From Escherichia coli (GTDB taxonomy: Bacteria > Pseudomonadota > Gammaproteobacteria > Enterobacterales > Enterobacteriaceae), in NCBI RefSeq assembly GCF_036507355.1, contig NZ_AP027877.1: DNA of 64,000 nucleotides. One strand, written 5' to 3'. Shown one piece after another: positions 21,171 through 23,779 of the stretch; position 1 is the stretch's first letter; each line of letters opens with the position of its first letter. The position numbers were made by a program, and so were the translations under genes. A model generated the notes under the pieces. The model was given only the letters and a program-made list of their open reading frames with translations, ran no database searches and was not told where the DNA came from.

Positions 21171-21192
21171 AAAGGCGCTTTTTAGCGCCTTT
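21171..21192 (-). terminator. Hairpin terminator between Tfa and the acyltransferase gene
   Basis: AAAGGCGCT-TTTT-AGCGCCTTT perfect 9-bp stem flanked by A/T runs. Confidence 0.4.
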
Positions 21193-21195
21193 AAA

Positions 21196-22320
21196 TTAAG
21201 ATATTCTTTTAGCTATAGAATGACCTATATTTATAAACGGTTTTTCTATTACGTTATATATCAAGTAAGATAGGCTTATAGAAATTATGAGCGATGATAT
21301 ATAAATGGCAAACGATCTATGTTCAGTGCTAATACCAATACTGGAACCGTAAAACTCAATAAACTGTATAACAGGAACATGAATCAGATAAAGTGAATAT
21401 GATATTCCACCAAGAGCAACAAGTGATTTATTGAATGAAATAACTTTATTATTTTCTAGAATAATAACACACAAAACAATCAGAAATGCAATATATGCAG
21501 ATCGCGTCAAACCATGTCCTTCAGACACCCCATTAAGCCAAAAAACAAACATCATTCCTAGAATGAAAACGCATAAACTATTTATAATAGAATTATTCAT
21601 TCTTTTATGCCTAAGTAAAGGCATTGTCTCTGATATAATCATCCCTAAAATGAAATCATATACTATAGGATTGCCTATGAATCCTATATGAGAAAACACC
21701 CCTGTTTTTGCAATATTGAATGATTGGGCGTCAATTACTACCGAGTGGTTAAAGTAAAGAGAAATAATTGTACTTACAGCAACTAGAAAACATGATGTGA
21801 TTAATACCCTGTATTTTATGCTTAATGACATGGATATTGCGAAAATAAAATAAAAATATATCTCGTACCCAAGTGACCATGAAACAATTAGCGTTCCCCA
21901 CCCATAATATGGCGGTAGAGTTGAGACATCTAAAGGGATGAGAAGAAATGATTTTATAATATTATTTATAGAAAAAACACCACCCCATGATACGCCTGTG
22001 TAAATATTGTGGTAAAAAAGAAAAACATAAACGCTTAATACTATTGCGTAAACAGGATAAATTCTAAAAAATCTCTTTACAAGAAATGAGGCGGTATTTC
22101 TTAAAGATGTTTTTGTAAAGTTTTTAGTTGAGTATGATATTATAAATCCGCTTATTATAAAAAACAATTCAACTCCAAATATAGCATTCGCGGTTATCCT
22201 GTCCATGAAAGAACCAGGATCTACTTGCCCGAAAAGACCTCTATTATGACCAATAGCTACAGCAAGAGCTGCAATTCCACGAAGCGCTTCTATTCCGTAT
22301 AATTTATCTGTTTTCATCAA
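21196..22320 (-). CDS. Acyltransferase family 3 integral membrane protein, Oac-like (candidate O-antigen O-acetyltransferase)
   Basis: 374 aa, about 10 TM segments, N-terminal ALRGIAALAVAIGH and FFIISGF motifs; very AT-rich; between tail-fibre genes and integrase. Confidence 0.75.
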   Translation of the reverse strand: MMKTDKLYGIEALRGIAALAVAIGHNRGLFGQVDPGSFMDRITANAIFGVELFFIISGFIISYSTKNFTKTSLRNTASFLVKRFFRIYPVYAIVLSVYVFLFYHNIYTGVSWGGVFSINNIIKSFLLIPLDVSTLPPYYGWGTLIVSWSLGYEIYFYFIFAISMSLSIKYRVLITSCFLVAVSTIISLYFNHSVVIDAQSFNIAKTGVFSHIGFIGNPIVYDFILGMIISETMPLLRHKRMNNSIINSLCVFILGMMFVFWLNGVSEGHGLTRSAYIAFLIVLCVIILENNKVISFNKSLVALGGISYSLYLIHVPVIQFIEFYGSSIGISTEHRSFAIYISSLIISISLSYLIYNVIEKPFINIGHSIAKRIS

Positions 22321-22460
22321 GTAATATAGTTAGTAGTTGATAAAATTGTTGCTGGAGTCTACCACCAAGAGCTTGGATGATCGACCAGTTAGCATCTCAA
22401 GCTGTATGCGTGAGACAAAAACGAGACACACAAAGCTTTGCAAGTCTTTGCGCTGTTTAC

Positions 22461-23618
22461 CTATGATACCTTCTCCTCAATCCAATCCGCCCACCACTGC
22501 ATCATTTCTCTGCGCTTATCGAGATACTGAGCATGGTTGTAAATCCCGCGCACAGATCCGCCGTTGGCATGTGCCAGTTGCACTTCAATAGCATCAGCAG
22601 GCCATTCGTGCTCGTTCATAATCGTGCTGAATTCATGCCTGAATCCGTGACCGCTTTCCAGACCTTCATAGCCGATTTGTTTGATCACAAGCAGTACAGC
22701 GTTCTCGCAAATTGGCTTCTTCTTATCGTTGCGCCCGGCAAAAACAAACTCTGATACTGGTTTGGTGATTGAACTTAGCGTAGTGAGAAGTTCAACTACC
22801 TGGTCTGACATAGGAACCACATGAATCTTGCGTCCCTTCATCACACTGGCCTCGATGGTGATAATCCTGTTTTCAAAATCGACGTTCTTCCATTGCATGG
22901 AACGAAGCTCTTTTGTTCTTAGTGCTGTGTAGCGTAAAACTTTGGTCGCAATGAGAGATACGATACTTCCTGAAAATGTTGCAAGTGCTTTGTTGAATGC
23001 CGGGATCTGGTCGGCAGGTAAAAACGGGAAGTTCTTCTTGCGGTATCCTTTCATGGCGTCTGCAAGGTCAGGTGCCGGGTTATATTTAGCCCTTCCGGTG
23101 ACAATAGCGTAACGAAAAACCTCGCCGCATCTTCTGCGGGCTTTGTTGGCTCGCTCCATTGCACCGCGATCTTCAAATCTTCGGATTACTTCCAGCAGTT
23201 GCATCGGCTCAATATCCTGAATTTCAAGACCGCCGATGATGGGTAAAATGTCGTCATCAAACATTTTGGCAAGTTCAGTTGCATAGCCTACTGACCAGAC
23301 TTGCTTCTTGTGCTCGTACCATTCCTTGTAAATCGCACTAAATGAATTGTTGTTAGACGAAGCCTTTTTCGCCTTTACCGGATCGATGCCAACCGAGATG
23401 TCTTTCCTCGCAGTCCATGCCTTATCCCTTGCTTCCTGCAAAGTCATAAGCGGATATTTTCCGACAGTCAGGATTTTCTCCTTACCGTCAATCTTGTAGC
23501 GAAGCTGCCATACCTTTTTCCCTGATACAGGGACATAAAGGTACAGGCCATTACCATCGAGTAGGCGGTATGGTTTTTCTTTCGGCTTTGCTGCTTCAAT
23601 CTGCTTAACGGTGAGCAT
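22461..23618 (-). CDS. intS: Tyrosine integrase (IntS-like, P4-type)
   Basis: Matches recalled K-12 IntS from MLTVKQIEAAKPKEKPYRLLDG; the track ORF extends 12 codons further upstream. Confidence 0.88.
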   Translation of the reverse strand: MLTVKQIEAAKPKEKPYRLLDGNGLYLYVPVSGKKVWQLRYKIDGKEKILTVGKYPLMTLQEARDKAWTARKDISVGIDPVKAKKASSNNNSFSAIYKEWYEHKKQVWSVGYATELAKMFDDDILPIIGGLEIQDIEPMQLLEVIRRFEDRGAMERANKARRRCGEVFRYAIVTGRAKYNPAPDLADAMKGYRKKNFPFLPADQIPAFNKALATFSGSIVSLIATKVLRYTALRTKELRSMQWKNVDFENRIITIEASVMKGRKIHVVPMSDQVVELLTTLSSITKPVSEFVFAGRNDKKKPICENAVLLVIKQIGYEGLESGHGFRHEFSTIMNEHEWPADAIEVQLAHANGGSVRGIYNHAQYLDKRREMMQWWADWIEEKVS

Positions 23619-23779
23619 GGGTAAAAATCCGGTGGGTAAAATTATTTTATCCACTTTTTACCCGTCATGGAGTGCGGCTGTCAACGATCTGACGCGAACC
23701 ATGACGAACCGTGAATATACGGAAGGCTTGATATTCAGGGGATTTTGCGGACTGGTACGGATGGGAGCGAACTGATAAA

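Follow-up and report, generated by a model that had tools for sequence, protein, structure and literature searches.

A prophage-borne acyltransferase cassette at argW of Escherichia coli, predicted to acetylate the O-antigen

In the stretch of 64,000 nucleotides from Escherichia coli that is analyzed here (contig NZ_AP027877.1, assembly GCF_036507355.1; in the following termed the window), a gene for a membrane protein of the acyltransferase-3 (AT3) family is situated between the tail-fibre assembly gene of a defective SfII-like prophage and an integrase gene at argW. We consider it probable that this gene is a phage moron constituting a single-gene serotype-conversion cassette and that it encodes an AT3-only inner-membrane O-acyltransferase, by analogy most likely an O-acetyltransferase of the host O-antigen. 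Gene anatomy, sequence motifs, cassette boundaries, genomic contexts, association with host O-types and purifying selection were observed or computed. The gene is uncharacterized, a literature search having turned up no paper on it, and belongs to the well-known class of phage-borne AT3-only O-antigen acetyltransferases.

An Exchangeable Cassette Between Tail-Fibre Assembly Gene and Integrase

A survey of 5426 complete E. coli genomes found the acyltransferase gene in four, in all four of them at the same location. The limits of the cassette emerged from comparison with strain PS_131_S11, which harbors a 98%-identical sibling prophage at argW with gtrA, a glycosyltransferase family 2 gtrB and a gtr(type) gene for a 485-residue protein in the corresponding interval. 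Homology between the two prophages as determined by blastn ends at window position 21151 and restarts at 22468, i.e., at the end of int, and the AT3 cassette of 1316 bp and the gtrA-gtrB-gtr(type) cassette of 3039 bp are therefore alternative fillings of one and the same slot. Between 21152 and 22467, the AT3 open reading frame (ORF) stands alone without a second ORF, and as no gtr gene is present there, a GtrA/GtrB/Gtr(type) glucosylation module was ruled out for the window.

The same slot is variably occupied in other elements. The genes yfdG-yfdH-yfdI lie in the equivalent position of CPS-53 in strain K-12, as the original prediction had stated. Strain Yu5 carries a different AT3 gene there, the product of which (355 residues; locus L006, 4338-5405) also falls into PHROG 3333 and is 27% identical to the window protein; this Yu5-type AT3 was also found in strains CB209, 300033 and 300444. 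In phage SfII, the interval between tfa and int comprises oacD, an insertion sequence (IS) and gtrII-gtrB-gtrA, and in phage Sf6 the gene order is tailspike, oac, int. The sibling gtr cassette, yfdGHI of CPS-53 and the Sf6 arrangement thus support the proposal that the gene occupies a slot for O-antigen modification genes and is part of a module replacing gtrABS. The gtrABS cassettes, be it yfdGHI of CPS-53 or the prophage gtr genes of the O77 group treated below, share slot, flanks and the presumed O-antigen-modifying purpose with the AT3 cassette but comprise three proteins, use undecaprenyl-phosphate-glucose as donor and bear no sequence relationship to the AT3 protein. A copy from Salmonella group H has only window positions 21141-22365 in common, at 86% identity.

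The Acyltransferase Protein

The original prediction described a membrane protein of 374 residues with about 10 transmembrane (TM) segments and arginine/glycine-rich N-terminal motifs, and apart from the length, this description was corroborated throughout. The ORF of 374 codons (21196-22320, minus strand) begins at an in-frame TTG at 22320, one codon upstream of an ATG at 22317. The latter is more likely to be the start codon, yielding 373 residues, because RefSeq annotates orthologues from there and homologues share this start. Acyl_transf_3 (PF01757) is the sole Pfam domain (E 1.1e-28, residues 8-355 versus model positions 2-325 of 326), and hydropathy as well as an all-helical AlphaFold2 model (pLDDT 89.7, pTM 0.90) indicate approximately ten TM helices. 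The N-terminal motif rich in arginine and glycine, LRGIAALAVAIGHNRG, contains R13-x10-H24, located in TM1, which is accompanied by F52FIISG57 in TM2 and R82FFR85, matching the R/K-x10-H, FFxISG and RxxR motifs defined for AT3 proteins by Pearson et al. (PMC7448272). R13, H24, the FFxISG motif, R82 and R85 are invariant or nearly so across 32 homologues, down to 30% identity. They align with essential residues of OacB (R47, H58, F98, R116 and R119), Oac (R73 and R76) and OafA (R14, H25, R69 and R72), and in the alignment to a hidden Markov model (HMM) of the family, the motifs are likewise matched in WecH and OpgC.

The gene was predicted to be very AT-rich, and its G+C content is indeed 31.5% (23.5% at third codon positions), whereas int has 46.6% and the late genes of the phage have 54.8%. 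It is under purifying selection: the ratio of nonsynonymous to synonymous substitution rates (dN/dS) is 0.11 versus the Salmonella orthologue and 0.105 versus the copy from Enterobacter.

An SGNH domain is absent from the protein according to Pfam, and the chain ends after TM10 at residue 373 without an 11th TM helix. A fused AT3-SGNH acetyltransferase of the OafA, OafB or OatA type was ruled out on these grounds, and the match to phrog_6705 (OafA-like, 647 residues) is restricted to the AT3 part. The single significant neighbor of the AlphaFold2 model in the PDB is human HGSNAT (8vli and related entries; probability 1.0, TM-score 0.42, 13% identity), a likeness which would fit the trans-membrane acetyl transfer proposed below. 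In HGSNAT, a transmembrane enzyme, acetyl-CoA accepted at the cytosolic face serves to acetylate a sugar across the membrane, and AT3 enzymes have been proposed to work in this way; HGSNAT differs, however, as a eukaryotic lysosomal protein with additional domains, whose reaction is the N-acetylation of glucosamine. Neither the single protein nor a profile of the 32 sequences retrieved anything relevant in sequence searches of the PDB, a Foldseek search of the BFVD viral models yielded one unnamed match only, and among the NCBIfam models no equivalog was matched, SucT appearing only below threshold.

Relation to Characterized Acyltransferases

The window protein is a member of PHROG 3333, labeled 'O-acetyltransferase' (E 2.4e-86, 291 bits), as are OacB of phage Sf101 (243 bits), OacA of phage Sf6 (230 bits) and Oac of phage phiV10 (186 bits), while OacD is not part of this group. 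A family HMM was built on the 32 homologues, with which true family members score 256-476 bits. Among characterized enzymes, OacB scored highest (63.6 bits), followed by OacA (51.2 bits), WecH, which acts on enterobacterial common antigen (ECA; 36.1 bits), phiV10 Oac (11.2 bits), OpgC, which acts on osmoregulated periplasmic glucans (-3.7 bits), and OacD (-17.4 bits). The nearest characterized relatives are therefore O-antigen acetylases and not peptidoglycan or other non-lipopolysaccharide enzymes, the kind of best match that would have spoken against the original prediction. Its term 'Oac-like' is appropriate for family and architecture as judged by PHROG 3333 and motifs. It does not extend to orthology with OacA, OacB, OacC or OacD, to which identity is at most 31% and over short stretches, and for lack of full-length similarity in BLASTP, orthology to OacA, OacB/OacC, OacD and phiV10 Oac was rejected. 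As a yardstick for shared specificity, OacB and OacC, which have the same function, are 72% identical. 'Oac' denotes a functional class rather than a sequence clade because the characterized Oac proteins are equally far from one another. Identity with housekeeping WecH or OpgC was rejected in view of the missing NCBIfam equivalog, the low HMM scores, the prophage-borne location and the occurrence in four of 5426 genomes. The determinant of Kapi1, an argW phage that modifies the O-antigen, is not an AT3 protein of the window type.

The closest parallel in organization is OacA of Sf6. It is likewise encoded by an AT3-only single-gene cassette between an argW-type int and a receptor-binding gene, belongs to PHROG 3333, contains the R-x10-H, FFxISG and RxxR motifs, and its gene is convergent with the tailspike gene, with a terminator in common; the window retains the fossil of such a tailspike. 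On the other hand, OacA has 333 residues as compared to 373, Sf6 is a P22-like podovirus and not an SfII-like myovirus, and the acceptor of OacA is rhamnose I of Shigella flexneri, whereas that of the window protein is probably the mannose backbone discussed below. OacB, the top characterized relative by the family HMM, has its critical residues matched in the window protein, but pairwise BLAST is not significant (E 0.2-0.4), OacB is 390 residues long with 11 TM segments including an extra N-terminal helix, and its acceptor is rhamnose III.

As to SfII, the phage backbone is the same (late genes 98%), and oacD is found just downstream of the tail-fibre assembly gene, as is the window gene. SfII integrates at thrW, differs in its int/att arrangement and carries gtrII in addition to oacD. 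OacD and the window protein have nothing in common beyond the Pfam family (E about 1). OacD has been shown experimentally to 6-O-acetylate the N-acetylglucosamine (GlcNAc) of the O-antigen (PMC9558356). In an SfII-like prophage of S. flexneri 6, oacC directly adjoins SfII-like tail genes (PMC4206707). Among phage-borne homologues, the closest (46-47% full-length identity, PHROG 3333) stem from the Lederbergvirus phages SI8, SF6, SI5, SF10 and S.Inf 5-2, whose hosts include serovar Infantis; they are annotated as 'exopolysaccharide production protein (ExoZ)', and functional data were not found for them.

Association With the O77 Group

With regard to the glycan acted upon, all four complete E. 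coli carriers possess the wzy/wzx cluster of the O17/O44/O73/O77/O106 group (in the following O77 group), which is present in 93 of the 5426 genomes. Carriers within this group are strains LSC52, C4, GIMC1405 and 2021CK-01784. The probability of this occurring by chance is about 9e-8 if the four carriers are independent and about 3e-4 or less if they represent two to three lineages. PS_131_S11, the host of the gtr-bearing sibling prophage, also belongs to the O77 group, in agreement with the literature, where diversification of this group is attributed to prophage gtr genes (PMC7685785).

Two further lines of evidence come from other genera and from the linked tailspike. An 89%-identical orthologue occurs in Salmonella serovars Carrau and Beaudesert, the former with the antigenic formula 6,14:y:1,7 (PMC6300517). 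A Wzy protein of Salmonella is 70% identical to that of the O77 group, homologues in Cerro, Enterobacter and Citrobacter reach 50-55%, and the genera and serovars with O77-like Wzy proteins are the same ones that hold homologues of the acyltransferase. The receptor-binding domain of the tailspike linked to the gene resembles ORF212 of phage CBA120 (29% identity over approximately 465 residues; E 3e-35 in tblastn, 2e-42 pairwise), a match that is suggestive. ORF212 is TSP3 (PMC6517402), which cleaves the O77 antigen (PMC10408124). Three independent leads, i.e., host O-type, occurrence in other genera and linked tailspike, thus point to an O77-type O-antigen as the acceptor, and the window enzyme is probably an O-acetylase of the O77-type mannan backbone.

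A Tailspike Fossil and the Mobility of the Cassette

In all of the eight contexts examined, including that of the window type, the gene is located in a prophage and beside a receptor-binding gene. In Escherichia fergusonii (99.7% identity) it adjoins a P22-type tailspike gene near bioA-ybhB, and in Citrobacter portucalensis (96%) a tailspike gene near thrS. In serovars Carrau and Beaudesert, the orthologue is the last gene of a lambdoid prophage by the hut operon, beside a tail-fibre gene. The homologue from Enterobacter hormaechei (67%) adjoins a tailspike-like gene of 664 codons and that from Salmonella Cerro (50%) the tail-fibre assembly gene of a myovirus remnant, while prophages of Salmonella Montevideo, Infantis and Braenderup as well as Lederbergvirus phages such as SI8 (46-47%) exhibit the order int, AT3 gene, tailspike at argW. 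The AT3 protein of the P22-like argW prophage of these three serovars (47%, annotated as ExoZ) represents a cluster of 1538 sequences. The tailspikes of Citrobacter and E. fergusonii differ in their N-terminal anchors and are 77% identical in their receptor-binding domains, so that the travelling unit consists of the receptor domain of the tailspike together with the convergent acetylase.

In the window itself, a fossil of such a tailspike gene was detected next to the acyltransferase gene. Positions 21021-21163 (plus strand) translate to SLLYGTTAQRPVSSIVPVEYYDTTLGLPVWWNITTSTWKRADGVDV followed by the stop codon, with 72% identity over 58 residues to the C-terminus of the intact E. fergusonii tailspike (E 1e-23, tblastn). 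Nucleotide homology to the loci of E. fergusonii and Citrobacter reaches leftward past the cassette to exactly this point, window position 21021. The hairpin between the two genes (Table 1) must therefore once have been the shared terminator of two convergent genes, as it is in Sf6. In E. fergusonii, a 27-codon 3' fragment of an IntS-type gene lies upstream of the acetylase gene (locus L034, 5764-5844), in a P22-like prophage that is not located at argW; int 3' end, AT3 gene and tailspike thus moved as a block. From these sequences we infer that the cassette derives from a P22/Sf6-type argW phage and would have entered the SfII-like prophage by recombination via int and the 3' end of the tailspike gene. 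As the gtr-bearing sibling keeps the fossil up to 21151, gtr is suggested to have replaced the acetylase in the sibling lineage and not the reverse. The fossil is a clear case of a receptor-modifying moron moving between unrelated phage types.

The cassette has also moved between strains. Window positions 19102-23000 are 99.9% identical to strain GIMC1405, while from approximately 23000, inside intS, the window diverges by 2.7-3.6% from GIMC1405 and the other carriers, which marks a recombination breakpoint, and identity to GIMC1405 is 96.5-97.3% in the left flank (1-3528). This contrast between prophage arm and flanks implies a recent transfer of the module between E. coli lineages. Over the chromosomal flank (fadL-fadJ), the closest complete RefSeq E. 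coli genome is only 99.5% identical; the host is an uncommon lineage and a recent acquirer of the prophage arm.

A more far-reaching reading concerns the Salmonella homologues. Serovars Montevideo, Infantis and Braenderup are O:6,7 (C1), and by the White-Kauffmann-Le Minor formulae, factor O:14 is presumably found in precisely those groups from which the homologues stem, namely the C1 serovars, group H (Carrau, Beaudesert) and Cerro. It has been reported that the gtr operons of C1 do not produce O:14 (Davies et al., PMC3688519). It is conceivable, albeit rather unlikely, that the AT3 clade (at least 47% identity) as a whole is a mobile module of tailspike and acetylase that tracks O-antigen backbones of poly-mannose and N-acetylhexosamine across Escherichia, Salmonella, Enterobacter and Citrobacter, that it defines a serologically unrecognized O-acetylated member of the O77 group in E. 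coli, and that a phage-dependent O factor of Salmonella, such as O:14, may be determined by it.

Terminator and Upstream Region

The gene was predicted to possess a hairpin terminator of its own. Read on the minus strand, the G+C-rich hairpin at 21171-21192 consists of a 9-bp stem followed by a T-run (-15.6 kcal/mol, z -5.4), 4 nt past the AT3 stop codon and 8 nt past the stop codon of the fossil tailspike gene. Upstream of the gene, positions 22330-22467 are common (95% identity) to the window and to the different AT3 cassette of strain Yu5. That two unrelated AT3 cassettes conserve these 138 nt suggests that the region has a regulatory function. As this upstream region contains one GATC only, it lacks the Dam/OxyR phase-variation signature of the gtr-operon type.

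Proposed Function and Alternative Explanations

The acyl donor, the acceptor and the position acetylated are predictions, as are expression and phenotype, and the mechanism is modeled on Oac, OacB, OafA and HGSNAT, a relative of solved structure. With its ten helices, the protein would bind cytoplasmic acetyl-CoA at a site formed by R13 and H24 in TM1 and R82-x-x-R85, and the acetyl group would be carried through the membrane and transferred onto a hydroxyl group of the O-antigen repeat at the periplasmic face, either before or after polymerization. The likely acceptor would be the ->6)Man(a1-2)Man(a1-2)Man(b1-3)GlcNAc(a1-> backbone of E. coli O17/O44/O73/O77/O106, which is reportedly also that of Salmonella O:6,14. 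As a likely outcome, the epitope would be altered and the lysogen protected from phages whose tailspikes or fibres use this O-antigen, a superinfection exclusion of the kind known for Sf6 and phiV10. The cassette would have arisen next to a tailspike gene in a P22-type phage, would have recombined into the SfII-like prophage, where it is interchangeable with gtrABS, and has outlasted the decay of that prophage.

Several observations weigh against this interpretation. OacA, OacB, OacD and phiV10 Oac resemble the window protein in the N-terminal motifs only, the best pairwise match in BLASTP covering 81 N-terminal residues of OacA at 31% identity (E 2e-6) and all others having E values of 0.02 or above. 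The O-type of the window's own host is not readable from the window. The four complete carriers from the O77 group are not phylogenetically independent; SNP (single-nucleotide polymorphism) densities in the flanks suggest two to three lineages. The Yu5-type AT3 gene occurs in three O77-group strains and in one O125 strain (300444); hence, the notion that AT3 genes in this slot occur only in O77-group hosts holds for the window type (4/4) and fails for the Yu5 type, and the link between slot and O-type is strong but not absolute. The match of the linked tailspike to TSP3 is strongest in the generic modules at the N- and C-terminus and weak over the beta-helix in between, which makes it suggestive only. 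The link to Salmonella depends on O:6,14 having the O77 backbone, as it reportedly does. Reviews describe the diversity of the O77 group as consisting of glucose side branches only and name no O-acetylated member (PMC7685785, PMC10304059). Finally, a promoter scan revealed no convincing sigma-70 promoter upstream of the ATG, the best-scoring sites being inside the ORF, no Shine-Dalgarno sequence is obvious ahead of the ATG, and at 31% G+C, silencing of the gene by H-NS is conceivable. The hexamer TATATT lies upstream of the ATG at a distance of 5 nt (window 22318-22340), and together with the missing Shine-Dalgarno sequence, this opens the possibility of a leaderless or near-leaderless mRNA; read-through from int is an alternative.

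Among the explanations that compete with O-antigen acetylation, we judge it unlikely that the enzyme acylates another surface glycan, such as ECA in the manner of WecH, a group 1/4 or K capsule, colanic acid, or periplasmic glucans in the manner of OpgC. AT3-only enzymes act on many glycans (PMC9558356), and the family HMM also detects WecH, at 36.1 bits. Capsules as well as O-antigens can be targets of tailspikes, and phage CUS-3, which resides at argW, encodes the capsule O-acetyltransferase neuO. However, the host already has WecH and OpgC, the latter with a negative score in the family HMM, and none of the NCBIfam equivalogs is matched by the window protein. Moreover, the slot is also filled by gtr cassettes, which act on the O-antigen, in E. 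coli the gene co-occurs with one particular O-antigen cluster and in Salmonella with a serogroup that reportedly has the same backbone, and the linked tailspike resembles a glycosidase for the O77 antigen.

Slightly less probable still is that the gene is an inert passenger, either silent (bound by H-NS, without a promoter) or acceptor-less in this host, and kept since a defective prophage cannot excise. The state of the prophage, with no attL, an IS at 4425-5237 and two large deletions, would agree with this, as would the lack of a strong promoter or Shine-Dalgarno sequence, the low G+C content of 31% and the recent arrival of a prophage arm 99.9% identical to that of a strain whose chromosome differs by approximately 3%. 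Against it stand the intactness of the ORF in every carrier examined while flanking phage genes decay, the dN/dS of 0.11 across genera and the conservation of the 138 upstream nucleotides between two unrelated AT3 cassettes; in addition, oac of Sf6 and gtr operons are also expressed from prophages. It appears highly improbable that the O-antigen receives succinyl, propionyl or another acyl group instead of acetyl, or that an unlinked periplasmic partner of the SGNH or PatB-like type is needed. The AT3 family does include succinyl- and other acyltransferases such as OpgC, and the mechanism of AT3-only enzymes is regarded as unresolved (PMC9558356), yet OacA, OacB, OacC, OacD and phiV10 Oac all transfer acetyl groups and work as single cloned genes, the cassette is devoid of a second ORF, and the nearest solved fold uses acetyl-CoA. 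Acetylation of the host O-antigen by the cassette-encoded enzyme is thus the reading that we prefer.

The Surrounding Prophage and Chromosomal Flanks

The features of the region are compiled in Table 1. The predicted position of the gene between tail-fibre assembly gene and integrase at argW agrees with the assignments obtained there (phrog_188, phrog_1/NF007246 and ARAGORN). RefSeq names orthologues of the window integrase 'prophage integrase IntS', and beyond argW the genes yfdC, mlaA and fadL follow as in K-12.

TABLE 1. Features in and around the acyltransferase cassette (window coordinates).
Feature	Position	Strand	Basis of assignment
Late genes of the defective SfII-like prophage: terminase, portal, protease, truncated capsid-sheath fusion, tail tube	13508-19114	+	SfII identity, PHROG matches
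Tail-fibre gene, glycine-rich C-terminal part, SfII-like myovirus tail	19570-20280	+	phrog_863, phrog_1396
Tail-fibre assembly chaperone, last intact structural gene of the prophage	20503-20907	+	phrog_188, E 8e-35
Fossil of the 3' end of a P22-type tailspike gene, last ~47 codons and TAA, once convergent with the AT3 gene	21021-21163	+	tblastn
Exchanged cassette, 1316 bp: terminator, AT3 gene and upstream region	21152-22467		blastn breakpoints versus PS_131_S11 prophage
G+C-rich hairpin flanked by T-runs on either side; intrinsic terminator serving the AT3 gene and, in the past, the convergent tailspike gene as well	21171-21192		Structure scan
AT3-only membrane acyltransferase, 373 residues from ATG	21196-22317	-	Pfam, PHROG 3333, motifs, AlphaFold2, dN/dS
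Intergenic region between int and AT3 gene, 143 nt; presumed expression signals (putative function)	22318-22460	-	Sequence inspection
IntS tyrosine integrase, intact, argW-specific type as in CPS-53/KplE1, Sf6 and HK620	22461-23654	-	phrog_1, E 3e-81; NF007246
tRNA-Arg(CCU), argW, attachment site at its 3' end	23780-23854	-	ARAGORN; K-12 layout

The element is a locked-in defective SfII-like prophage with an argW-type int module like that of Sf6 and CPS-53. The late gene region is 98% identical at the nucleotide level to positions 13-4642 and 8866-9845 of SfII, a serotype-converting Shigella phage, and window positions 19102-19871 are 96% identical to SfII. Two internal deletions have removed the parts corresponding to SfII 4643-8865 and 9846-16508, fusing the 5' end of the capsid gene to the 3' end of the sheath gene (ORF 17923-18582), and have eliminated the genes for tape measure and baseplate. 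The first gene of the prophage is one for NinB (6222), and an IS transposase is found at 4425-5237. The prophage region 3529-19114 contains neither attL nor xis and is truncated at its left end at the IS transposase. A search for direct att repeats and for a duplicate of the argW 3' end was negative; the left end of the prophage has therefore been lost. Acyltransferase and int genes are intact in the window and likewise in GIMC1405, where of the phage structural genes those for the tail alone survive.

Immediately before the tailspike fossil, what is left of another tail-fibre assembly gene, in inverted orientation, occupies positions 20879-21007 (minus strand). RefSeq annotates it as a pseudogene at the orthologous loci, and it may go back to a tail-fibre segment that was once invertible. 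Homology to GIMC1405 stops at 3528, and dsdCXA and csc, which flank the prophage in other strains, are absent here. Further downstream, an AT-rich island (26093-27373, 32% G+C) between mlaA and fadL corresponds to the yfdF locus of K-12; it contains two ORFs (111 and 277 codons, Asp/Asn-rich repeats) as compared to one for a single hypothetical protein of 415 residues in other strains and is the most divergent stretch of the flank, with 13-15% mismatches. The fimbrial operon region downstream of sixA (34675-38430) is approximately 69% identical to GIMC1405 or unalignable and appears to be a replaced chaperone-usher cluster.

Significance

When temperate phages modify the O-antigen, the serotype of the host, its susceptibility to phages and the epitopes relevant to vaccines change. 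The uropathogenic ST69 lineage is part of the O17/O44/O73/O77/O106 group, and the Shiga-toxin-producing O77g:H18 strain of the 2025 French outbreak of hemolytic uremic syndrome belongs to it as well (PMC13188871). If our interpretation is true, in-silico O-typing overlooks a structural variant, and O77-specific tailspikes such as TSP3 of CBA120, which are used in phage-based detection, may fail on carriers. The paradigm established for S. flexneri, in which gtr and oac cassettes of phages decorate a single backbone interchangeably, would then extend to an O-group of E. coli and its counterpart in Salmonella. The interest of the cassette thus lies mainly in the predicted existence of an unrecognized O-acetylated variant of a clinically relevant O-group.

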